Shown piece by piece: positions 15,645 to 64,000 of a stretch of DNA of 64,000 nucleotides (positions are counted from its first letter, which is position 1; each line of letters opens with the position of its first letter). Source of the stretch: Bacteroidales bacterium. GTDB lineage: Bacteria; Bacteroidota; Bacteroidia; Bacteroidales; UBA1556. The DNA is taken from positions 5,042 through 69,041 of the forward strand of contig WGCS01000034.1 of NCBI GenBank assembly GCA_015493685.1, written 5' to 3'. A program made the position numbers and the translations under genes. The notes below the pieces were generated by a model. The model searched no databases and was not told the origin of the DNA. It saw only the letters and a list, made by a program, of their open reading frames with translations.

Positions 15645-18600
15645 TTAATTTCTGTATAGACTTACCGTTCCTTTGAGGTAGATGCTGGGATTTTTATCTA
15701 TTTCTCCAAATACAGTATAGTTAATCTCCCAAAAATAAACTCCTTCTGTTGCTTTTTCACCATTGATGCTTCCATCCCAAGGTTTATCCAAATTAGTGCT
15801 ATGATAAACAAGCATCCCCCAGCGATTATATATTCGAATCTCAAAAGTTTCAATATTTTGATATTCTATTTCAAATACATCATTATAACCATCCCCATTT
15901 GGAGTAAATACATTGGGGACTTTGAATTTAGACTTGCAGTTGAGTATATGAGTAGTGTCATAGGCATAGCAATTTCTTTCCTTTACTCTAACCCAATAGA
16001 TTCCAGGCCTGTAAACGGTAATACTGCTGCCCGTTGCATTGGTATTCCATCGATAAGCTTCATAACCACTTCCTGCATTTAGCAAGACGTTTCCTCCAAT
16101 ACAGATGGTGGTGTCAGGATGAAGTGTGACAAGTGGAGGCAGGTCTTGCCTGACTGTTATGGTGTCTTTTGCCGACCAACAATTAGAGCTGTCTTTGACT
16201 TGTACAATAAATATATTGGGCAGATTTACCCATCGCTGTGACAAATTGTAGTGGTCGTTCCAACGATAAGCTAAATAATTTCCCAAATTAATTTTTACAC
16301 TGTCGCCAATGCAAAATGCGGTATCTTTAAAAGCGATAATAATTGGGGGCGGTTGGCTTATGCTTATGGTGTCTTGGATTTGACATAATCCACTGTCGGC
16401 ACTTACGGTAAGGGTGTAGTTTCCGGCGGCTAAATTAGTAATAACTTGTCCTGTTTGTTGATTTGACCATTGGTAAATATAGGAGTAAATAGTGTCAGTA
16501 TTTATTATTTGAATGCTTCCGTTACTGTCGTTAAAGCATTGGTTGTCAGTAATAAGATAATTTAAATTGATGTTGCATCCCACATAAAGAGAGTCGTAAA
16601 CAGTACAATTGCCGGCATAGTCCACGGTAATATAATACCAGCCTGTTTGGTTTACCGAAATATCGGCTGATGTACTTCCTGTAGACCAATGATAACTGGT
16701 GTTGGGACCTCCATTAAAATTAACACTGCTAAGAATAATATTTCCTCCTAAACTTAGGTTTGTGTCAGGGCCCAGTCCGTAAACATATTGTGGCCCATTG
16801 GAGAATATCCAAGCCGAATTATTGGAAATGTCACTGCTAAATGCACCGGCATAATAGTTGGCTCCTCCCAAAGCATGAATATCGCGCATATTGATAAAAT
16901 CACCATTTACATTACCTGCCGCTTTGCTAACATAAGCTTGATTCCCTCTCGAAGTAGATTGTAATGTAAGGGCAAAGCAGTTGTTTCCTCGTACCTGCCA
17001 AAATGATCCTACCGTTTGAGTTTTAGCTTCTTCAAGCTGATAAGTATTGCCGGCCTGAAATAGAAGACTATCGAAATAATGTTCTCCATAGATATCAGCA
17101 TTATTGTTAATCTGTACTTTATTGAATGTATCGTGCGAGCTGTTTTCATTAATGATCTTGCTTAATCCTTTTCGTATTGGTTTGAAATCAACATTATTAA
17201 AATGAAGTATTTTTGTTCCTTTTAAATGGAGTTCCAGTTGGGGATTATTACTATATTCATTGAATATTATTTGAGAATTATTGGCCATTAAATTGATGCT
17301 ATCGCTATTGATAGAAAACGTATGTTTCAAGTGAAAAATAGAGTTTCTAAGGTCTAATTTTCTTGGTGTATTATTGGGAGATAAGTAGTCATAGGCAAAA
17401 ATAGTGTTATTATTAAGTATGAAATTTCCCTTATTATGAAAAATAGTATTGCAGTGTAAATCATCAAAAAGCTTCCAGCTGCCTTTTCTTTGAAAATAAA
17501 TCATGTTGGTGTACTGTTGTGAGGAACGGATATAGTTTCCTGTGTCGAGCGCCATAAAATGGAACTGTACGTCGGAGCGTAAGGTCATTGTGTCACCCAA
17601 ATAAAGTGAGCCATATATATTAAGTTTATAAATATTCATATAAGGATTGCTGGGGGTGAAATCCCAATACATAGTATGACATTCGATGGGTAAATTTGAT
17701 ATGGCGCTTCCTGCTACAGGAAAGGACTGTTGTGTAAAATGTACATCATCAACAGAAGTTGGAATGCATTCTCCGCTTATGCCCCCGTCGGTGAGTGACC
17801 AATGGGCTGTATCCCACCATTCACCTGTGGTATCAACCCAATAGAGTGTCCGTGCAGTAGGAGGTGTAATTTGCCAATTGGAAGAATTGCCTCCAAGGTC
17901 GAATCCATTAACAATGGTAAAGCTGCCATTACCAATGCCAATGATATTTTGTAAATAAACGCTGGATAAATTTACATTGCCATTGAGCTTATGTACATTT
18001 GTTGCTGAGCCATATCCTTGTATTTTTATGGTGCCATAACAATCGGCATTAGCTTGCCAGTCGTAGTTAATATATTGGTTGCTATTGCTCTGTAATGAGT
18101 ATGTTCCTCCTTTGGAAAATATCAATGTGTCCATATAATTATTCGCATTGAGATCGCCATCACCGCTAAAGAACAAAGTGTTAAAACGATTACTAAGGTT
18201 GTGGTCGTGCTTTATAATACCTTGTCGGCTAGAATCCAAGAAATTGACGTTATAAAAAACGGCTTGATTGCTTCCTTTAGTTTTAAGTTTGCCTCCGTGA
18301 ATAAAGTTCAGGCTTGAGTTGGCTGCTAGTAAGTGGGTGTTGTTGTTGCTTCGCCAATAGAAGATTCTATTTATTCCTCCGTCAATGATATTAATTTCTC
18401 CATTATGAAAGTCGAGGGTCTTTTTCTTGTCAATGTCGGCTAAATACGACTGAGCAAAAATGGGCTCTTGGTTGCAAATAAGTTTACCGGCATGGTGATA
18501 TATTTTTTCTCTAACATAGAGGGTGTCAAGTAAAGACCATTGTCCGGTATCACAAAATACTATTTCTCCATCATAAATTTGTCCGGCCATATCAATGCTT

Positions 18601-21083
18601 TTATTCAACTGGTCGTTGATATAAAAGGTTTTGGCTTTCATCTGAAAATCCATATTGTTAATTAGCTTAATGCTTCCTGAGATATAATGCGAATATTGGA
18701 TGGAGTCAAATATAAATAATGGATATTGTGTGCTTCCTGTCCAATCCATATTATGACAAAAAATATCGTTATATTGTATTAATACAGAGTCGTTGGAGTT
18801 ATTAAAAGAATTGGCATCGAAATATACATTGTCAAGGATTTTAGGAATGCATGCACCCGAGCTACCCCCACTACTATAGGACCAATGTGTGCTGTCTTGC
18901 CAGTTGCCGTTTCCATTTACCCAGTAGTGATCTTGGGCGTTATTATTAAATGTCCAGCCTGAATTCTCTCCTAAATCACTGCTGTTGTTGGCAATAAAAC
19001 TGGCGCCACCAACAGCATTGCTTCCACGTAAACTAACATTATTGGCTACGATGGTGGCAGAGGCAGGAAGGCTTAAGATGAAATAACTAATGCCGGTAGA
19101 TTCCAATAAATTAATGGTTTTAGTACAGCTGCCATCAGCAAGAAGAGCTTTGTTTATGGTGTCTGTTCTAGCGAAGAAAGTAAAGCTGTGGCCAGCCTTA
19201 AAGTAGGAGGTGTCGGAAATAGCAATTCCGGAGAGAGAAACATCCGCAAGATAATTGATCCTATTAAAGAAAGTTGATGCACAAATAAAACTTGATAGAT
19301 TAGCGCTTTCGTTGAAAGTAAGATTGTATAATGAATCAGGTAAGTTTCCGGAGCTTTCAAAATGGCTTCCGTTATTGAGCATGTGAATATGTGAAGTGCC
19401 CGGGTGTATGATTAAACTGTCCTGTTGGATATTACAACCCAGTTGAATATCAATAACGGAAGAGGAAAGATCTAATATTTTTGTGAAAGAAGAGTTTATT
19501 TGTAAACTATTACAATTGATATAATTGCCATCAGTGATAAGATGTCCTTTTGAAAATTTTATTCTTTTATTAGGATTTATTAAGCTATCGGTGAGCACCC
19601 AGCTTCCCAAGCCAATAAATTCTATATTGTGTTTTAAATTGATATTGGAAGTATGAATTGTTTCGCCTGTGTTATCCGAAACGAAAAAGATAGTGCTTGT
19701 ATTTTGCATCTGTAGCGAGTTTCCTAAATAAAGCGAACCGGAGATATGAATATCTTTATTGAAGTCCCATGTTCCGGCAACGTTATCGTGCCATAGAATG
19801 TTATGACATTCGGCGGGGATATTTCCTGAAATTATTAAACTTAAGTTAGTGGTGGAATTGCTGTCAATAATTACATTATCAACAAGAGTAGGGATGCATT
19901 CGCCTCCTGCTCCTCCGGAGATTGAAGCCCAATGGAGAGTGTCGTCCCAATCACCATTTCCATCAACCCAATATAGAGTTCTTGCATTTGGAGGTAACAA
20001 ATTCCAGCCTGTATTATCACCTAAATCGTCGGTAGCCATTGCATTGAAGACAGCACCTCCTGTGGCATGAATATGTTTAAGAATAAGATAGTTGCAATTT
20101 ATTACACCGCTGACTTTATTTATGCTTGCAAAACTTCCGCCACCCTGAATACTTAGTTTATTGTTGCAGCTCCCATTGGCAATAAATGCGTGTTGTATAG
20201 TTTGAGTAGTATTAACAGCTAGGGTATATTGCTGCCCTTTGCTAAATAGTAAACTGTCATAAGTATTGTTGCCATTGATAATTCCGCCGCCACTAAAAAT
20301 AACTTTATGGAAATTAATGGGGACAGATGGATTTGAAAGTTCACCTATTGCTCCTGTAAAATACACATTGTTATAAGTAAGGCTATTGTTAGTTGTGTGG
20401 TTGAAACTTTGGTTGCTAATGCTTATATTGGAATTAGTGGCATTGACATGAAACCCATTGCCATTAACAGTCCAATTGCCAATTTGTAAGCTGGAATTTG
20501 TAATAATTAGGTTTCTGTTGAGTGATGAATTGGAAGTAAAACTATTCCCTTGAATGCTTTTCCCATTGCTATTAAAAGTGCCATTTTCAAAGGATATACT
20601 ATTGAAATAAAGACTACTACTGAGAATCCAACTTCCGCCGCCTTTAAAAAACAGGGGCGACGAAAAATTCAGCCCATGGGGTTTTATCTCTGAAATACCG
20701 GCGGGGGCTTCAAAATAGAGTTTAGCTGTTGGTAAAGAAAGAAGGTTGCTTAATTTAAAATCACCATAGATTTTCCATATTTGACAGCTTCCGATAAAGT
20801 CAAGGTTAGAAGTAATGAGCTCTACATCAAAATTTTTACAGAATAATGTACTGATATTGAGATTGATAACAGCGCTATTATTCATCGAATTAGTATCAAA
20901 AATTACATTGTCAGCTGCTGTAGGCGTTTGAATATGGTGCGTAGTTCCTCCTGAACTTGTAGCCCAATGGTTAATATCGGACCAATTTCCGGAACCACCA
21001 ACCCAATAATAATCAGAGGTATATCCTGCTATCGAAAAGACTAAGAATACACAAGTTATTGCCAATTTTTGTATGAAAAGCAT
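15645..21083 (-). CDS. Giant modular cell-surface protein with a T9SS type B (gliding-motility CHU_C) C-terminal sorting domain
   Basis: 1812 aa with a signal peptide. Four ~350-aa modules are followed by a SprB-like repeat (CFNDSNGSIQI...YQWSNQQTG...GNYTLTVSADSGLC) and two Cys-containing Ig-like repeats (CIGDSVKINLGNYLAYRWN / CIGGNVLLNAGSGYEAYRWN). The C-terminus is VPNVFTPNGDGYNDVFEI...GVYFWEINY. Confidence 0.9.
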   Translation of the reverse strand: MLFIQKLAITCVFLVFSIAGYTSDYYWVGGSGNWSDINHWATSSGGTTHHIQTPTAADNVIFDTNSMNNSAVINLNISTLFCKNFDVELITSNLDFIGSCQIWKIYGDFKLSNLLSLPTAKLYFEAPAGISEIKPHGLNFSSPLFFKGGGSWILSSSLYFNSISFENGTFNSNGKSIQGNSFTSNSSLNRNLIITNSSLQIGNWTVNGNGFHVNATNSNISISNQSFNHTTNNSLTYNNVYFTGAIGELSNPSVPINFHKVIFSGGGIINGNNTYDSLLFSKGQQYTLAVNTTQTIQHAFIANGSCNNKLSIQGGGSFASINKVSGVINCNYLILKHIHATGGAVFNAMATDDLGDNTGWNLLPPNARTLYWVDGNGDWDDTLHWASISGGAGGECIPTLVDNVIIDSNSTTNLSLIISGNIPAECHNILWHDNVAGTWDFNKDIHISGSLYLGNSLQMQNTSTIFFVSDNTGETIHTSNINLKHNIEFIGLGSWVLTDSLINPNKRIKFSKGHLITDGNYINCNSLQINSSFTKILDLSSSVIDIQLGCNIQQDSLIIHPGTSHIHMLNNGSHFESSGNLPDSLYNLTFNESANLSSFICASTFFNRINYLADVSLSGIAISDTSYFKAGHSFTFFARTDTINKALLADGSCTKTINLLESTGISYFILSLPASATIVANNVSLRGSNAVGGASFIANNSSDLGENSGWTFNNNAQDHYWVNGNGNWQDSTHWSYSSGGSSGACIPKILDNVYFDANSFNNSNDSVLIQYNDIFCHNMDWTGSTQYPLFIFDSIQYSHYISGSIKLINNMDFQMKAKTFYINDQLNKSIDMAGQIYDGEIVFCDTGQWSLLDTLYVREKIYHHAGKLICNQEPIFAQSYLADIDKKKTLDFHNGEINIIDGGINRIFYWRSNNNTHLLAANSSLNFIHGGKLKTKGSNQAVFYNVNFLDSSRQGIIKHDHNLSNRFNTLFFSGDGDLNANNYMDTLIFSKGGTYSLQSNSNQYINYDWQANADCYGTIKIQGYGSATNVHKLNGNVNLSSVYLQNIIGIGNGSFTIVNGFDLGGNSSNWQITPPTARTLYWVDTTGEWWDTAHWSLTDGGISGECIPTSVDDVHFTQQSFPVAGSAISNLPIECHTMYWDFTPSNPYMNIYKLNIYGSLYLGDTMTLRSDVQFHFMALDTGNYIRSSQQYTNMIYFQRKGSWKLFDDLHCNTIFHNKGNFILNNNTIFAYDYLSPNNTPRKLDLRNSIFHLKHTFSINSDSINLMANNSQIIFNEYSNNPQLELHLKGTKILHFNNVDFKPIRKGLSKIINENSSHDTFNKVQINNNADIYGEHYFDSLLFQAGNTYQLEEAKTQTVGSFWQVRGNNCFALTLQSTSRGNQAYVSKAAGNVNGDFINMRDIHALGGANYYAGAFSSDISNNSAWIFSNGPQYVYGLGPDTNLSLGGNIILSSVNFNGGPNTSYHWSTGSTSADISVNQTGWYYITVDYAGNCTVYDSLYVGCNINLNYLITDNQCFNDSNGSIQIINTDTIYSYIYQWSNQQTGQVITNLAAGNYTLTVSADSGLCQIQDTISISQPPPIIIAFKDTAFCIGDSVKINLGNYLAYRWNDHYNLSQRWVNLPNIFIVQVKDSSNCWSAKDTITVRQDLPPLVTLHPDTTICIGGNVLLNAGSGYEAYRWNTNATGSSITVYRPGIYWVRVKERNCYAYDTTHILNCKSKFKVPNVFTPNGDGYNDVFEIEYQNIETFEIRIYNRWGMLVYHSTNLDKPWDGSINGEKATEGVYFWEINYTVFGEIDKNPSIYLKGTVSLYRN
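15648..15926 (-). other. T9SS type B sorting domain (aa 1720-1812)
   Basis: KVPNVFTPNGDGYNDVFEIEY...IYNRWGMLVY...WDG...GVYFWEINY. Confidence 0.85.
16794..17843 (-). repeat. Protein-level module 4 (aa 1081-1430)
   Basis: Starts YWVDTTGEWWDTAHWSLTDGGISGECIPTSVDDVHF and ends GGANYYAGAFSSDISNNSAWIFSNGP. Confidence 0.8.
17844..18926 (-). repeat. Protein-level module 3 (aa 720-1080)
   Basis: Starts YWVNGNGNWQDSTHWSYSSGGSSGACIPKILDNVYFD and ends GNGSFTIVNGFDLGGNSSNWQITPP. Confidence 0.8.
18927..19973 (-). repeat. Protein-level module 2 (aa 371-719)
   Basis: Starts YWVDGNGDWDDTLHWASISGGAGGECIPTLVDNVIID and ends GGASFIANNSSDLGENSGWTFNN. Confidence 0.8.
19974..21008 (-). repeat. Protein-level module 1 of the giant surface protein (aa 26-370)
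   Basis: Starts YWVGGSGNWSDINHWATSSGG and ends ATGGAVFNAMATDDLGDNTGWNLLPP. Confidence 0.8.
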
Positions 21084-58052: not shown

Positions 58053-58715
58053 TTACCAAGCTTCCTTATAAGTTACCACCTGGCTACCTTTAAAGCCATA
58101 TTTCTTATCAGTTTTTGTTTTGTATGCTTTGGCTTCTTTCTCCGTGTTGAATTGTCCTACACAATATTTATACAGCCCTTGATAATTTACAATATAAACT
58201 TTCTGCGAATCGGAAAAAACTTTGGAGAGCTCACTCTTACTCATTTTATGTACCTTTACTATTACTTGGACATAGTATTTGGCTTTGTCGGCATCAGTAA
58301 AAACTGGAATTAGCTTAATATCTGAGTCTGATTTTATTTCAGCAATGCCATTTGAATTATCAGGATTGGCTTGGCGGTTGACCTCTTCGTCCATTATATT
58401 GCCCAAGTCTTTGGAAGTCTTTATGGTTTTGGATTTTTTATTTTCCTCTTTTTTATTAGTTACTATTTTCGTTTCTTTTTGTTTCTTTATCCTTTTCTTT
58501 TTTGTGGGTTCTTTTATGACTGCTTTTTCTTTTGTTATTGTTTTGGAAAGGGTATCGATGCTTCTTTCAACATTAGTGTCCACCGCAGCTTCTGTTGTAA
58601 TAATATCAGTTTTGGATAATTCAGATACAGATTTGTCTTCTTCTTTAACTTCATTTTGACAAGCAGCCAGAAAAGCTAATCCACATAGAGCTAAGATTGT
58701 TTTATTTAGTTTCAT
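58053..58715 (-). CDS. Lys/Glu-rich lipoprotein with a C-terminal SPOR (peptidoglycan-binding) domain
   Basis: Lipobox LAFLAAC. Low-complexity KE-rich linker. C-terminus YYVQVIVKVHKMS...YIVNYQGLYKYCVGQFNTEKEAKAYKTKTDKKYGFKGSQVVTYKEAW. Confidence 0.7.
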   Translation of the reverse strand: MKLNKTILALCGLAFLAACQNEVKEEDKSVSELSKTDIITTEAAVDTNVERSIDTLSKTITKEKAVIKEPTKKKRIKKQKETKIVTNKKEENKKSKTIKTSKDLGNIMDEEVNRQANPDNSNGIAEIKSDSDIKLIPVFTDADKAKYYVQVIVKVHKMSKSELSKVFSDSQKVYIVNYQGLYKYCVGQFNTEKEAKAYKTKTDKKYGFKGSQVVTYKEAW

Positions 58716-58744: not shown

Positions 58745-59134
58745 TTATTTAGTTTTGTTACTATTCGATTCTAATTCGTTAAGCCATTTGATGGTGTCGT
58801 CAACTTCTTGTTGAGTGTGTCCTTTTCGTTTGGCTAAATTAATACATAATTCATATTCTTTTTCATGAATTTCGCCATCAATCATAGCCATAGCCACGAT
58901 ATCCGAGATGAAATCAATTTCATCAATTTCAAATAGAGCCATTTTGTTAATGTCTTCCAACTCAGTTGATAACATCTCTTGTACGCTGTTGATGGGAAAT
59001 CCCAGTTCATTAGCTTTTGAACGAAAAAAATCAATTTCAGCCTTTTTTAGTTTCCCATCAGCCATAGCTACTGCCATTAGCGCTCTAAAATATTCGACAT
59101 TAAGTTTTTTCTGTAGGGGTAAATAATCTTTCAT
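58745..59134 (-). CDS. TerB-like (tellurite-resistance TerB/DjlA N-domain family) protein
   Basis: 129 aa. Two copies of the pattern AMADGKLKKAEIDFF / AMIDGEIHEKEYELC, typical of TerB-like domains. Confidence 0.55.
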   Translation of the reverse strand: MKDYLPLQKKLNVEYFRALMAVAMADGKLKKAEIDFFRSKANELGFPINSVQEMLSTELEDINKMALFEIDEIDFISDIVAMAMIDGEIHEKEYELCINLAKRKGHTQQEVDDTIKWLNELESNSNKTK

Positions 59135-59305: not shown

Positions 59306-62300
59306 TTACCAGGCTTTCTTGTATTGGGTTACAAAAGCATCAGGAAGACTATATTTCTGAACAAGCTCTTTTTTATATGCTTTAGCTTCTTCAAAGGTGT
59401 CAAATTGTCCTACGGCATACTTATATAGTCCATCTTGTTCAATCTCATAAATTGTTGGTACATCAGGTACTAATTCAATAAAATTAGTTGCCTTTAAGGG
59501 TTTAGCTGAAGCTTTTATTTCTACTCGGTAGAATTCTCTGTCTTTTTCACTATCAATTTTCTTGATGGTTTTCTTAATAGTATTTTCTGTTTTATTGATA
59601 CTATCATTTTTTGTCTTAAGAGTTTTGCTTTCCGCTTTAATTTTATTGCCAAAGACCATGGTAATTACTTGTGCATCCTTAAAACCGAGTTTAGCAATTT
59701 GTTTTTTCAATTTCTTGGCTGCTTTTTTCTTTTTGAAACTATCACTAATGTATAAGAATTCTCCATTGGCTCCGGTGATGCAGCGAACATTACTTACGCC
59801 TTTTAAGGTGTCAAATACAGATACTAATTTTCTGGCTTGTTCGTTGGGATAGAGCTGAACAATCCAAACTTTTCCTTCTTCATTGGGAGTAACAACAGGG
59901 AGATAAAGAGAATCCTGTAGTTGAGTTCTTTGTTCAGGAAGGCTATCATTTACTGATTTATTACTCTTAGTACTTGGCGTAGTACTAGGTGATTTTTTCT
60001 TGGGTTTGAAGGTGCTATGTCTTCGTATTGGCAGAGCTCTGGTATGTTTCCCACGGATATTGATATTCCGTTTTTTCTCTGACAGATAGAAACTTACATT
60101 GTAGTTTTCAAAATCTTCATTAATGGCTATTGGAATGTCGTTTTGTAAGAAAGAATAGTGATTGTCCACAGCAGATTCATTAATGCTAATAATGTAATTG
60201 CCGTTGGGAACAAATAGGACAAAGTTACCCGCTTCTGTAGTTAGAGTACTGAATGTTTTTCCATTATCCTGATTAACTGCTGTTACTCTAATATTGCCCA
60301 GATTTAATTTTTTGTTTGTACCATAGCGATCTTTTTCCAATAAAACTCCTCCACTAACTCTGGCTCCTCGACTCAAAGGAATGTATATGGTTTTGTTTTT
60401 ATCAATGGTTCTATAAAATGTTTTTCCATCGAACCATCCCCCCATTGAGGCAAGAGGCATAGCCGTAATTACATAATCTCCCAATGGAATATTTTTGTAT
60501 TCTACCGTTCCGTCGGTATTGGTTACCAAATCATATTCTTCCGGTCCGGTATAAAAACCTTGATGGGTATCAGGAGATTTAAATTGGGCAACAGTATCAT
60601 TTAATTTGATATGAATAAGCATATCAGAGATGCCTTTTTCATTTAGATCTTGTTTCCCATTTCCATTCAGATCCCTAAAAGCAACAACCTTAACATCGTA
60701 ATTCTTTTTAAATCCAATGGGCATATTTACATTAAATTTAATTCCTGCACCAAATTCTATTCTTGAACTTGCATTTGCCGGTACTATTTCTTCATTAGTT
60801 GTTCCATTTTTACCATGGTAAATTCGAGTATATTGACCTTCACCAAAGAAGATATAGCGAGCGTATAAACTAAACCTAAATCCACTCTTAGCATAGTAAA
60901 ATATTTCAGGACGAGTATTGAGCTGTTGTCGGGTATTAATGGTGTTAATATAGTAGTTTAGATTAAGATTTAAACGCATTTTATTATTTAAAAACCAATA
61001 GTCGTAATAGGTATTAAAATAGAGTTTTTGAGGATTAACTTGGTCAAGAGAGTATTGTAATTGATCAATTTGATAATAAGGGCCATAGTAATATCTGGCA
61101 TTAGCTTGCAGGTTTTTATAGCGAATAGAAGCTCTAACATTGGCAATAAAAATATTGCCTAGTTCAGGTGATCTTTGAAAGGAAGAATAACCTAAGAATG
61201 AATTAGTATAGATTTTAAAAGCTCCACGCGACATCAGGCGATAATCGAAAGATAGTCCACCCGTATTAACATCAATTAAAGGACTTTTAGTTGTGTAGTA
61301 TTGAGGTTGGAAGATAAATACATTCTTTCCGGATTTTACTTTCAATTTGATGCTATAGTTTTCGAAAGTATTATATATAATGTTGGTAGATAAAATTCCG
61401 CGAGAATAAATTGTAGGTTTAAAATCTAAATATGAATATTGTAATCCAAGGCTTATATTATTGTTAAAGTGATAGTTCAAATTAGGTGTAATATTAAAAG
61501 TACCTTTACGTGGGGTATATGAAGGGGAACCATAATTGGCATTTAATTGGAAATTCAGTTTCTTAAATGAACCACTATAGCCAAAACGAGCTCCATAGCC
61601 TGTGATATGAAGAGGGTTTGCAGGATTCCATAAATAATTTTCAGAGCTATATCCGCCGCCTATACGTATTGATTGAGTTCTGGCAAAACGAATTGATAAG
61701 TAGGTATTTCCATAATCGGAATGTGTTTTACTTAGGTTGTCATCCAGATGCTGATAGTAATTATCCCAATACAGTTTATGAAGGTTTAAATTATGAAAGA
61801 AGCCATATCCGGAAGCATAATAGTATTCAAAGAGTTTAGGTTTACGAATATAAATTGCTCCCAGTGTATTTTTTGCAAAAGTAACCGACGCTTTAGCTCC
61901 TTTTCCCGATAAGGTGCTACCTGATCTATTGGCTCCAATATCTCCTATTTCTACCGCAAAATTCTTATGGAAGTAGCCTAAATATTGATAGTTGCCAAGA
62001 TAAGATTTAGGATTTAGCTGATTTTGGACAAAGTCGGCTTGAAAGAAATAGTTTAAGCGGCTGTCGTTTGCAAATTTTTTATTCCCATACAAACTCAAGG
62101 ATGAATAGGTATGATCGGAAAGTACATCGTAAGTATTTGATTCTACAGTAATGGGTAGAGAATTTAGTTTGGTAGGCTTAATTTTCATTGTATTGTTCAA
62201 CTTATAAAAGTCGATACTTCCTGACCATGAGCGACCGGAGCCTTTACTTGTTTTCTCGTTTAGTACTTTAATCTGTAAGCGATATTTTTTTTGTGAATTA

Positions 62301-63004
62301 TCTTGTTTTAAAGTAGGCCCATTAATATCTTTTTGTGATTGTGGAGATAATTTTACACTATATTGCAATGTAGTATCATGGCCGGCCAATAAATATACTG
62401 AACGAGGTATGGGGATGATTTCTTCCCCGCTTTTATCAACTAGTTCAATTTCATTATCAAGTTTAAGGCGAACTTGTAAAGCTTCGTCAGAGTTTCCTTG
62501 GTTAGTGATTACAACATCAAAGCTTGCTGAATCTTTGTTTCCGGTAAAATAGAGTTTTCTATTGGGACAATAAGCAGTCCATGCAGAAACCTTGTTAACT
62601 TCGATATACCACATACTATTGCTAATGGTAAAAGTTTCGGTAGATAGAAAAACGTTGACTAAATAATTGGTATTTCCCTTAATGTCATATACTGGTCGTA
62701 CTCTTAGGGGAATATAGATGGTATCGTGGGGTATTAATTTTAGGGTACGGGAGGCTTTGGCAAATAACCTCCATCCGGCAGGTGGATTAACCTGGAGATT
62801 TAGATCCAATGATTTGTTGGTATTATTAATTACAAACAAAACATTAGAGGCCACATCGGTAGCTTTAATTTTGGTTCTAGCTTGCAAAAAACCCATTTGC
62901 ACACCATAAGCACTAGCATTTACTGTAGTAACGTCTTTTTGTGCTTGTAATTGAGTAATGCTTCCCAAAATCCATACAATGAAAACAAGTAGTTTTCTAG
63001 TCAT
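59306..63004 (-). CDS. Large multidomain envelope protein: signal peptide, two Ig/CARDB-like domains, a ~470-aa beta-barrel-like core, two beta-sandwich domains, a basic linker and two SPOR domains
   Basis: 1232 aa. MTRKLLVFIVWILGSITQLQAQ. VVITNQGNSDEALQVRLKL. Aa ~295-765 are rich in alternating Y/F/N strands (e.g. RLNYFFQADF, FQLNANYGS, LSFDYRLMS, RLNLNLNYY). DLNGNGKQDLNEKGISD and GNFVLFVPNGNYIISI. SPOR1 KVWIVQLYPNEQARKL...GFKDAQVITMVF. SPOR2 FYRVEIKAS...GLYKYAVGQFDTFEEAKAYKKELVQKYSLPDAFVTQYKKAW. Confidence 0.7.
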   Translation of the reverse strand: MTRKLLVFIVWILGSITQLQAQKDVTTVNASAYGVQMGFLQARTKIKATDVASNVLFVINNTNKSLDLNLQVNPPAGWRLFAKASRTLKLIPHDTIYIPLRVRPVYDIKGNTNYLVNVFLSTETFTISNSMWYIEVNKVSAWTAYCPNRKLYFTGNKDSASFDVVITNQGNSDEALQVRLKLDNEIELVDKSGEEIIPIPRSVYLLAGHDTTLQYSVKLSPQSQKDINGPTLKQDNSQKKYRLQIKVLNEKTSKGSGRSWSGSIDFYKLNNTMKIKPTKLNSLPITVESNTYDVLSDHTYSSLSLYGNKKFANDSRLNYFFQADFVQNQLNPKSYLGNYQYLGYFHKNFAVEIGDIGANRSGSTLSGKGAKASVTFAKNTLGAIYIRKPKLFEYYYASGYGFFHNLNLHKLYWDNYYQHLDDNLSKTHSDYGNTYLSIRFARTQSIRIGGGYSSENYLWNPANPLHITGYGARFGYSGSFKKLNFQLNANYGSPSYTPRKGTFNITPNLNYHFNNNISLGLQYSYLDFKPTIYSRGILSTNIIYNTFENYSIKLKVKSGKNVFIFQPQYYTTKSPLIDVNTGGLSFDYRLMSRGAFKIYTNSFLGYSSFQRSPELGNIFIANVRASIRYKNLQANARYYYGPYYQIDQLQYSLDQVNPQKLYFNTYYDYWFLNNKMRLNLNLNYYINTINTRQQLNTRPEIFYYAKSGFRFSLYARYIFFGEGQYTRIYHGKNGTTNEEIVPANASSRIEFGAGIKFNVNMPIGFKKNYDVKVVAFRDLNGNGKQDLNEKGISDMLIHIKLNDTVAQFKSPDTHQGFYTGPEEYDLVTNTDGTVEYKNIPLGDYVITAMPLASMGGWFDGKTFYRTIDKNKTIYIPLSRGARVSGGVLLEKDRYGTNKKLNLGNIRVTAVNQDNGKTFSTLTTEAGNFVLFVPNGNYIISINESAVDNHYSFLQNDIPIAINEDFENYNVSFYLSEKKRNINIRGKHTRALPIRRHSTFKPKKKSPSTTPSTKSNKSVNDSLPEQRTQLQDSLYLPVVTPNEEGKVWIVQLYPNEQARKLVSVFDTLKGVSNVRCITGANGEFLYISDSFKKKKAAKKLKKQIAKLGFKDAQVITMVFGNKIKAESKTLKTKNDSINKTENTIKKTIKKIDSEKDREFYRVEIKASAKPLKATNFIELVPDVPTIYEIEQDGLYKYAVGQFDTFEEAKAYKKELVQKYSLPDAFVTQYKKAW

Positions 63005-63024: not shown

Positions 63025-63582
63025 TTATAAATCTTCAATAATCACATAATCTATACGAAGGGTGTATAATCCACTTTGGTAAGTAAAACCGGGGACAATA
63101 CGTAAATCTACAGTAAATTTATAACAAGAAGGGTTTGCAGAATAATCACCGGCAGTATTTGTCCCTGTATTGGGACAATTGATACTTGGGTCCGGTGCTG
63201 CATTCGTTCCAATAATATATGTCGGAGTATTAATGTCTTGAAGCGTAAAAAATCCAGAAACTTGTGAGGTAGAACTGGCATTACGGAATTGTAATTTTAG
63301 GATATCAATGGGGGGAGGATCTCCTCCTGTTGAATAGGTTTGGGTAACATCCCAATATCCCACGTTTGTTGTTGTTGCTCCAACGTAAATATCGAACTGA
63401 CTTGATGCGTTTATATTTAATGTAACTGCATTCATATAGGTAATACCATTGATATACTCTTGAATGGTATTGAAATCAAAAGTGATATTAGGGGACGTTT
63501 TCAAATCAAAACTTACCTGAGCACTAGATGAAATACTCAGAAAAATTGCTATTTGAATAAAGATTAGTTTTATAATTTTCAT
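63025..63582 (-). CDS. Small secreted protein of unknown function with a ...IIEDL C-terminus (paralogue 2)
   Basis: Signal peptide MKIIKLIFIQIAIFLSISSSAQ. Thr/Asn/Gly-rich beta-type sequence. C-terminus YKFTVDLRIVPGFTYQSGLYTLRIDYVIIEDL. It ends 20 bp upstream of the 1232-aa gene. Confidence 0.6.
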   Translation of the reverse strand: MKIIKLIFIQIAIFLSISSSAQVSFDLKTSPNITFDFNTIQEYINGITYMNAVTLNINASSQFDIYVGATTTNVGYWDVTQTYSTGGDPPPIDILKLQFRNASSTSQVSGFFTLQDINTPTYIIGTNAAPDPSINCPNTGTNTAGDYSANPSCYKFTVDLRIVPGFTYQSGLYTLRIDYVIIEDL

Positions 63583-63591
63583 ACCTCCCAT

Positions 63592-63631
63592 AATAAAATA
63601 ATGAAAGGAGAGGGACTAATTTCGCCTCTCC
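63592..63631 (-). terminator. Intercistronic GC-rich hairpin plus T-rich tract between the two paralogues (candidate attenuator or partial terminator)
   Basis: Plus-strand GGAGAGG (63607-63613) pairs with CCTCTCC (63625-63631). On the minus strand the hairpin is followed by TTTCATTATTTTATT. It lies 20 nt after the stop of the upstream paralogue. Confidence 0.4.
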
Positions 63632-63651
63632 CTTCAATATAATTGTAATTT

Positions 63652-64000
63652 TTATAAATCCTCAACTAGAGAATAAACAACTTCTAAGTAATAATAACCA
63701 GCTTGAGCATAGTCAATTCCGTTACCATTAGCACTCAAAAGAACTGTAGAATTGGGGAAAATAGCAGGAATACCTGGCTTTAATCGCATATCAATTCTAA
63801 ACTTGTGAGTAGTTGGGTTATGGGCGGCAGTACCTGGAGCAAATTGCTCACCGGCTCCTGTTCCAAAAGCACCAGCTAAAAATTGAGTAGCAGCAGATGG
63901 ATGACCATTATTAACAGTAGAATTAGTTAAACCCAATAAAGAAGAAAAGGAATTGATATTTACCGGTGCAGCAGAAGTAACAGAAGACTTCAATTCTAAA
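63652..64000 (-). CDS. Small secreted protein of unknown function with a ...LVEDL C-terminus (paralogue 1). The 5' end lies outside the window.
   Basis: The frame is open to the window edge (LELKSSVT... aligns with FDLKTSPN... of paralogue 2). C-terminus HKFRIDMRLKPG...AGYYYLEVVYSLVEDL. Confidence 0.6.
   Translation of the reverse strand, partial: LELKSSVTSAAPVNINSFSSLLGLTNSTVNNGHPSAATQFLAGAFGTGAGEQFAPGTAAHNPTTHKFRIDMRLKPGIPAIFPNSTVLLSANGNGIDYAQAGYYYLEVVYSLVEDL

Follow-up and report, generated by a model that had tools for sequence, protein, structure and literature searches.

The 64,000-nucleotide stretch analyzed here (from contig WGCS01000034.1 of a Bacteroidales bacterium; hereafter, the window) ends in a cluster of minus-strand genes, two of which, designated A and B, encode small secreted proteins that resemble each other. 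A terminator-like hairpin separates B from A, and gene U, directly downstream of A, encodes a putative outer-membrane protein. We describe the relationship of A and B to each other and to tubular fibrils known from cryo-electron microscopy (cryo-EM), and the pilus that these genes may specify. The features of the locus are:

63652..64000, minus strand: gene B, 3′ part (codons 110-225 of 225 plus the stop codon); putative major shaft subunit
63655..63702, minus strand: codons for the C-terminal strand and tail of B, AGYYYLEVVYSLVEDL; β7 equivalent plus acidic tail
63590..63635, transcribed minus strand: terminator-like hairpin, with a stem-loop at 63603-63635 and an A/U-rich tail at 63590-63602
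63025..63591, minus strand: gene A, a complete open reading frame (ORF) of 188 residues; TLP-1-family subunit without an N-terminal donor-strand extension, with two invariant Cys residues; putative tip or first-incorporated subunit
63517-63591, minus strand: codons for the signal peptide of A, MGGMKIIKLIFIQIAIFLSISSSAQ, of Sec type, read directly from the sequence
63028..63075, minus strand: codons for the C-terminal strand and tail of A, SGLYTLRIDYVIIEDL
59306..63004, minus strand: gene U, 1232 residues, 20 nt downstream of A; putative outer-membrane assembly/secretion platform

The 5′ part of B, including its donor-strand codons, lies beyond the end of the window. Full-length B (225 residues) was taken from a near-identical contig (L001:9263-9940), from which the window copy differs by one residue; three near-identical metagenomic or metagenome-assembled genome (MAG) contigs share the window locus. 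A first-pass annotation of the window had proposed that the two adjacent ORFs are paralogs, and comparison of the full-length proteins bears this out. The C-terminal 60 residues of A align with the window part of B (E = 1e-7), BLASTP against full-length B extends the alignment over the whole mature length at 30% identity (E = 3e-20), and profile-profile comparison with hhalign gives a probability of 99.7% (E = 8e-26). The N-terminal pairing of FDLKTSPN with LELKSSVT suggested in the annotation is an artifact of the window edge and must be discarded because LELKSS (residues 110-115) lies in the middle of B, where it aligns with LKLQFR of A (residues 97-102). With the register corrected, the proposed pattern of conserved ends and a divergent middle holds, the segment identities being 44% for the N-terminal core, 22% for the middle, and 42% for the last 33 residues. 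The middles are variable between the paralogs but not within them: each orthologous group is conserved over the whole protein, and B orthologs are 64-86% identical across orders.

Motifs were counted in 74 homologs of A and 120 of B (194 in total). The pattern G-x-[YF]-x-[LMIV]-x-[IVL]-x-[YF]-x-[ILV]-x-x-D-L occupies the C-terminus of 71/74 A and 116/120 B proteins, or 187/194 overall, and the final DL is found in 72/74 and 117/120, respectively. The conservation check that had been recommended thus upholds the terminal strand and the DL of the putative (V/I)EDL ending. The glutamate is a feature of B, with [VI]EDL closing 115/120 sequences, but is not retained in A, which has Q, E, S, or P at this position. 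Residues Y213, Y214, E216, Y219, and L221 together with EDL are invariant in the B alignment, as are G174, Y176, D187, and L188 in that of A. The two invariant Cys residues of A are not found in B, and the loops of A are distinct.

The signal peptides of A and B are of the Sec/signal peptidase I (SPI) type, end in ...SSSAQ and ...KSYAQ, and contain no Cys. The A-Q at the cleavage site is invariant in both alignments, and cleavage before Gln follows the Q-rule of Bacteroidetes (PMC5837995). No Pfam or NCBIfam family is matched by either protein (E up to 1-10). As the annotation had argued, the tail is not the C-terminal domain of type IX secretion system (T9SS) cargo: the last strand belongs to the core fold, and neither A nor B matches Por_Secre_tail in a scan that detects this domain in a 483-residue neighbor protein on L001 (E = 8.7e-16).

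The hairpin between B and A has a predicted stability of -23.6 kcal/mol (RNAfold, z = -3.7), a value reached by 0 of 200 shuffled sequences. A G+C-rich hairpin followed by a T-run is located directly after the B stop codon in each of the 30 loci with both genes and in three sister-subfamily loci. The hairpin sequences are unrelated across loci, so it is the structure that is conserved and not the sequence. A simple consensus terminator scan did not call the B-A hairpin. Such an arrangement would suit a major subunit that is strongly expressed, with read-through supplying the minor components encoded after it, and the hairpin is a putative attenuator that would give a high ratio of B to A.

A genome scan using one genome per species recovered 28 loci, all from Bacteroidota. 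The hosts include Carboxylicivirga isolates A043 and N1Y90, Geofilum rubicundum JCM 15548, Saccharicrinis, Prolixibacteraceae, Chitinophagales, and Flavobacteriaceae, and further loci (L005 and L007) come from MAGs labeled Draconibacterium orientale. A adjoins B in 28/28 loci, and the order B(x1-3)-A-U is found in 25/28, across Marinilabiliales, Flavobacteriaceae, and other Bacteroidota. In some genomes, A is preceded by two or three B genes in tandem (L024:7585-9858, L028:2289-4837, L022:8266-9877); one of the copies in L022 is divergent, at 44% identity.

A and B belong to the TLP-1 fibril family

Sequence and structure comparisons place A and B in the family of TLP-1a and TLP-1b, 8-nm tubular fibrils that were found by cryo-EM of filtered pond water (CryoSeek, Tsinghua Lotus Pond; PMC11494351). 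In these fibrils, β1 of protomer n+4 enters a cleft formed by β2a, β2b, and β7 of protomer n; the lumen is negatively charged, and outward-facing loops are described (PMC11494351). The CryoSeek authors did not identify the gene, host, function, or machinery of TLP-1a/b, and obtained no match from metagenomics and mass spectrometry; their best hit in the AlphaFold Database (AFDB) was to a Flavobacteriales bacterium (PMC11494351). A literature search revealed no paper on the genes or machinery of TLP-1-type fibers.

Residues 28-207 of B align with TLP residues 5-211 in phmmer searches of the PDB, with E = 2.9e-10 for TLP-1b (9ikk_A) and 1.1e-9 for TLP-1a (9ikj_A); entries 9IKJ and 9IKK, named 'TLP-1' and 'TLP-2', are TLP-1a and TLP-1b. 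In this match, EEYNYVTMDLRGILNLTM of B is paired with EQNVTVTMDLQPVLQLSM of TLP. The A-family profile detects TLP-1a/b at E = 7e-6. An AlphaFold2 model of A (predicted local distance difference test score, pLDDT, 79.6) has TLP-1a as its top Foldseek match in the PDB (E = 3.1e-7, prob 1.00, TMq 0.58), followed by the next best at E = 1.5e-3; the weak fold matches include Ena2A and TasA-type folds. The TLP-1b fragment (residues 5-211) was also rebuilt from the phmmer alignment and used as a tblastn query. It matches a B-type gene in every related locus with a complete B (28-33% identity, E from 1e-16 to 1e-11) and never an A-type gene in the same loci, which identifies B as the counterpart of the fibril protomer. 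TLP-1 itself sits in a sister subfamily whose members end in EDQ, where the closest representative (P0314) is 53% identical to the TLP-1b fragment; members of the broader family end in EDQ, EDL, or ENQ. The contigs retrieved for P0314, P0278, and P0273 are too short to reveal a useful gene context. The family is rare, comprising 133 clusters at 50% identity among 1.84 billion representative proteins.

These relationships agree with the earlier suggestion that A and B are secreted subunits of a donor-strand-type fiber. Resemblance to a known family of unrelated function would, according to the annotation, have spoken against this suggestion; the family that is matched is itself a donor-strand-exchange pilus family, and so the match does not do so. 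The role assigned to the C-terminal strand needs to be revised. It had been considered as a recognition or donor-strand-type motif, and by homology to TLP-1 it corresponds not to the donated strand but to β7, which forms one wall of the acceptor cleft (PMC11494351).

One B homolog, P0207 from Alkalitalea saponilacus, is named 'WxL domain-containing protein' in UniRef, and one protein encoded by the neighboring gene C (see below) has a weak WxLIP_PGBD match (E = 0.17). A and B could accordingly be non-filamentous proteins of the WxL type, associated with the surface or peptidoglycan, or generic secreted proteins with Ig-like or jelly-roll folds. We regard this as highly improbable because both sequence and fold match the protomer of a solved filament, significantly and over the full length. 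Moreover, Pfam WxL is matched by 0/23 B homologs at E up to 10, P0207 included, and no paper was found that links WxL domains with donor strands; the lead was rejected on these two grounds. A deep link to the WxL/Csc clusters of Firmicutes gains no support from the Pfam scan but is conceivable.

By homology, the donor strand lies at the N-terminus of B. In B orthologs the mature N-terminus Q-LSDEEYNYVTMDLRGIL-NLTMTTNPQ is invariant, as is the donor strand YNYVTMDLRGIL, which aligns with NVTVTMDLQPVL of TLP-1. Within it, YVTMDL is the equivalent of TVTMDL in the TLP-1 donor strand and is present in 119/120 B homologs and 0/74 A homologs. The conserved T-x-P turn is preceded by 23 mature residues in B (104/106) and 8 in A (60/64), A orthologs beginning directly before the turn without the 15 N-terminal residues of B. 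At the level of sequence, then, the N-terminal extension is present in B and absent from A, and A should therefore be able to accept a strand and unable to donate one. The single N-terminal strand of A is aligned to β2a by BLASTP and HMMER and to β1 by hhalign and global alignment, and the exact geometry of its cleft is uncertain because of this ambiguity. In either register, A is one strand short and has no extension able to reach another protomer.

A subunit that lacks a donor strand has only one possible place in a donor-strand polymer, the end that is made first, which in chaperone-usher pili is the distal tip (FimH, PapG). Because A fits only this end, it is most likely a tip or cap subunit, located distally and incorporated first. 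Gene fusions support the pairing of A with B. About 15 clusters in the EDQ sister subfamily (P0278, P0284, P0302, and others; L038:3572-4837, L040:5655-6932) encode proteins of 420-457 residues in which a signal peptide and an A-like domain are joined through a 12-14-residue linker to β1 and a B-like domain. This is the topology expected if the donor strand of B complements the cleft of A in cis. Alternatively, A might not be the tip at all, but a terminator, a cell-proximal anchor, a regulator of assembly, or a self-complemented monomer outside the fiber. The ambiguous register would permit a β1-like strand that folds back in cis, and the two invariant Cys residues and distinct loops of A also speak for a role other than the tip. 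We nevertheless consider such roles quite unlikely, as a donor-less subunit fits only the end that gives no strand, the fusions place the A-like domain N-terminal to β1 of B as if A accepts from B, and A is next to B in every locus of the genome scan.

The partner protein U and the chaperone-like protein C

The annotation had invoked an assembly machine, and U, encoded next door, is a fitting candidate. The protein has 45 homologs. Pfam identifies a SPOR domain (3.8e-7) and weak CarboxypepD_reg/SpaA/SdrD_B matches. The AlphaFold2 model of residues 1-1000 (pLDDT 82) consists of a signal peptide, two β-sandwich domains, a large barrel (residues ~280-767) to which DSSP assigns roughly 24-28 strands, and two further β-sandwich domains. 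The last 230 residues comprise a Lys/Ser-rich linker and one or more SPOR peptidoglycan-binding domains. FimD and PapC are the best Foldseek matches among bacterial structures (1e-11 to 1e-9). U is therefore likened to ushers in architecture; it is not classed as one because profile-profile comparison is negative (see below). A phmmer search of the PDB with U found nothing. The two top Foldseek matches overall are HYDIN-like proteins of the ciliary central apparatus, with tandem PapD-like/ASH Ig domains, and probably reflect the flanking β-sandwich domains of the U model. In the sister subfamily, LysM replaces SPOR in the U homolog, so that a need for attachment to peptidoglycan seems to be conserved. 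From these features, U presumably functions as an outer-membrane platform.

A further gene, C, adjoins U or B in half of the genome loci (14/28) and also in the sister locus L038, which has the order C, B-like, A-B fusion, and U with a LysM domain. Examples in which C directly follows U are L008:14198-15040, L019:13532-14347, and L030:13566-14378. C encodes a secreted two-domain protein of ~270 residues. Its Pfam matches are all below threshold and point to PapD-like, MSP, ASH, or Fn3-type folds, PapD_N attaining only E = 0.21. In hhalign, C aligns over both domains with five PapD-like chaperones of E. coli (E = 2.4e-5, probability 75%). Of five controls, one was a positive control, A against B; the other four (A, B, and the N-terminal region of U against the chaperones; C against ushers) had E values of 0.03-0.27. 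In the chaperone alignment, the invariant Arg of the C sequence SPSRLYF coincides with Arg8 of GATRVIY in FimC, and DYG is matched with DYG; the position of Lys112 is Ile in C. PapD-type chaperones use Arg8 and Lys112 to bind the terminal carboxylate of the subunit (PMC6838868). The N-terminal domains of U might be a built-in copy of C: hhalign gives 88%, but over only ~90 columns that include the signal peptide, and hmmsearch is not significant. We also considered that C might be fused into the longer, window-type U; this was rejected, since the extra C-terminal part is linker plus SPOR domains.

A proposed pilus and its assembly

We propose, with a probability of about 70%, that the locus specifies a TLP-1-type pilus of a Bacteroidota bacterium, built from A and B as its two structural subunits, with U as its assembly platform. 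Both subunits would be exported by Sec and cleaved before the invariant Gln. B would be the major subunit, and the 15-residue extension that follows its signal peptide, LSDEEYNYVTMDLRG, would serve as the β1 donor strand, inserting between β2 and the C-terminal β7 of another protomer (n+4 into n). A shares the elements that form the cleft; it would receive a B strand and donate none, at the distal tip or as a cap. The need of both subunits to bind one and the same donor strand, that of B, would explain why the β2 region and β6-β7 are conserved between them, and the divergent middle would form outward-facing loops. The hairpin would keep B in excess over A and U, and the fiber would be assembled through U, which the SPOR domains would tie to peptidoglycan. 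The acidic C-terminal tail may contribute to the charge of the lumen, to anchoring on a chaperone, or to both.

Several observations weigh against this proposal. The fiber is known here from genes alone, and filaments have been seen only for TLP-1a/b, which at 28-33% identity to B-type proteins belong to the sister (…EDQ) subfamily. Of the two subunits, the structural model covers A alone, as a single chain; the donor strand of B was placed by homology, and the N-terminal register of A is ambiguous, as described above. For U, TM-scores to ushers are low (0.23-0.36), other large barrels (TonB-dependent receptors, LptD) match at ~1e-6, and usher sequence similarity is not detected by Pfam or by hhalign against five E. 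coli ushers (1.6%, E = 0.03). C was not found in the window locus, in the loci of the closest relatives, or anywhere in the 64 kb. Finally, three Chitinophagales loci (L021, L022, L031) contain B-A without adjacent U or C, and their machinery, if any, must be encoded elsewhere.

The distribution of C bears on how such a fiber would be built. C is missing from the window and from L001, L004, L006, L015, L017, L018, and L020. In the window clade the fiber could thus self-assemble without a chaperone, as TasA and archaeal cannulae do, leaving U as an export pore or a peptidoglycan-anchored scaffold only. The lack of usher sequence homology in U is in keeping with this idea, and donor-strand polymerization without a chaperone is documented elsewhere (PMC12518558). 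Still, we judge it unlikely. C is tightly linked in half of the genome loci as well as in the sister subfamily, so that the ancestral system seems to include it, and the gene could lie elsewhere in the window's genome; in addition, the domain order of U is that of ushers, which are its top bacterial fold matches.

It is also conceivable, in line with the idea put forward in the annotation, that the terminal strand and its -(E)DL tail act primarily as a recognition or anchoring signal, the free carboxylate docking in the cleft of a chaperone or usher. The tail is found at the exact C-terminus in 189/194 homologs, with Gly at -14 and alternating hydrophobic residues, and the broader family shows EDQ, EDL, and ENQ endings. 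C retains the invariant Arg that aligns with Arg8 of FimC, a residue with an established role, with Lys112, in PapD (PMC6838868). Furthermore, the A-like domain of the fusions has no free terminus exactly where complementation in cis would spare a chaperone. On the other hand, no chaperone gene is present in the window's locus, C has Ile at the Lys112 position, and the acceptor-cleft role already accounts for the conservation of β7. The acidic residues after β7 also persist in the fusions although they are internal there, which argues for a structural role (e.g., the negative lumen of TLP-1) and not only a carboxylate signal. As the main purpose of the tail, docking is therefore doubtful in our estimation; as an added function, it would be compatible with the TLP-1-type pilus proposed here.

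A broader reading would make the locus one instance of a hitherto unrecognized, Bacteroidota-wide pathway that produces TLP-1-type fibers and parallels the chaperone-usher system. Such a pathway would comprise a donor-bearing major pilin, a donor-less tip pilin that is sometimes fused to the first shaft subunit, a very remote PapD-like chaperone dispensed with in some clades including that of the window, and an outer-membrane platform, usher-like in architecture though not recognizably in sequence, that is anchored to peptidoglycan through SPOR or LysM. It would be either an extremely divergent chaperone-usher branch or an independent invention. We consider its chances to fall slightly short of even.

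Two ORFs downstream of U are doubtful members of the locus, because they are linked to it only in the closest relatives (L001, L002, and L004):

58745..59134, minus strand: TerB-like ORF, 129 residues, downstream of U; Pfam TerB 4.1e-7
58053..58715, minus strand: SPOR-like ORF, 220 residues; C-terminus 35% identical to the C-terminal SPOR of U (E ~1e-9)

Farther away, the window contains a very large ORF of 1812 residues (15645-21083, minus strand). Past the right-hand end of the window, the L001 contig has two tandem gene pairs (L001:2460-7808) upstream of B and on the opposite strand, each composed of an unannotated protein of 372 or 384 residues and a 483-residue T9SS cargo protein with Por_Secre_tail. 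The pairs are separated from B by a 1.45-kb non-coding gap that is not conserved in other loci. In this gap, Rfam identified nothing, the inverted repeats are A/T-rich chance ones, and no invertible promoter was found.

Comparison with known systems

The TLP-1 family has been known only as a structure since 2024; what is new here are genes, hosts, and a candidate machine. The orphan TLP-1 fibrils gain a genetic address in a conserved B-A-U(-C) operon, and for fibers of this type a second, donor-less tip subunit and a candidate assembly machine are predicted. Cultured hosts can be named for knock-out and imaging studies: Geofilum rubicundum JCM 15548, Carboxylicivirga A043 and N1Y90, Alkalitalea saponilacus, and Natronoflexus pectinivorans. 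The proposed fiber would be a third kind of strand-exchange pilus in Bacteroidota, besides type V pili, and the locus offers a way to examine whether usher-like platforms arose repeatedly in evolution.

The closest likeness is to TLP-1 itself. B is homologous by sequence (E = 3e-10) and the A model by fold (E = 3e-7), and the VTMDL motif of β1 in B, the C-terminal β7 pattern with an acidic tail, the signal peptide, and the origin in Bacteroidota are shared. In contrast to TLP-1, which is described as a homopolymer, the present locus has two subunit genes, one of them donor-less, and a conserved outer-membrane partner. Identity between B and TLP-1b is only ~29%; B has the ending EDL rather than EDQ and is shorter by 10-40 residues in its loops.

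TasA, archaeal cannulae, and Ena are likewise built of β-sandwich subunits joined by an N-terminal donor strand (PMC11494351). They have no outer-membrane barrel partner, whereas here an outer-membrane protein of 1000-1200 residues is genetically coupled to the subunits.

T9SS cargo resembles A and B in having a conserved C-terminal β structure on secreted Bacteroidota proteins. In A and B, this is a single strand within the core fold and not a separate domain of 70-100 residues, and no TIGR04183-type match is found.

In type V pilins, which are lipoproteins processed by proteases of the gingipain type, the donated strand is C-terminal. The type V pili (FimA/Mfa1) are, like the proposed fiber, strand-exchange polymers of Bacteroidota with separate tip and shaft subunits. 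A and B differ from them in their SPI/Q-rule signal peptides without a lipobox Cys and in a donor strand that is N-terminal by homology, and they match none of the Pfam families of type V pilins.

Classical chaperone-usher pili (FimA/FimH, FimC, FimD) offer the most extensive parallels. These include an N-terminal donor strand, subunits without the extension as tip adhesins, and a major-subunit gene that comes first and is followed by a stem-loop. U shares with ushers its N-terminal β-sandwiches, large barrel, and two C-terminal β-sandwiches, and half of the related loci encode a periplasmic protein of two domains that remotely resembles PapD-like chaperones. The differences are equally clear. 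There are no Pfam Fimbrial, Usher, or PapD matches here, and neither A nor B belongs to Fimbrial or SCPU. U has two N-terminal domains and a C-terminal SPOR (or LysM) domain without detectable usher homology, the donor is n+4 in a 4-start tube according to the TLP-1 structure and not n+1, and the window's locus has no chaperone gene. The system would work like a chaperone-usher pilus, but its sequences do not identify a pilin or an usher of the classical families, and the similarity of C in related loci to the chaperones is remote.

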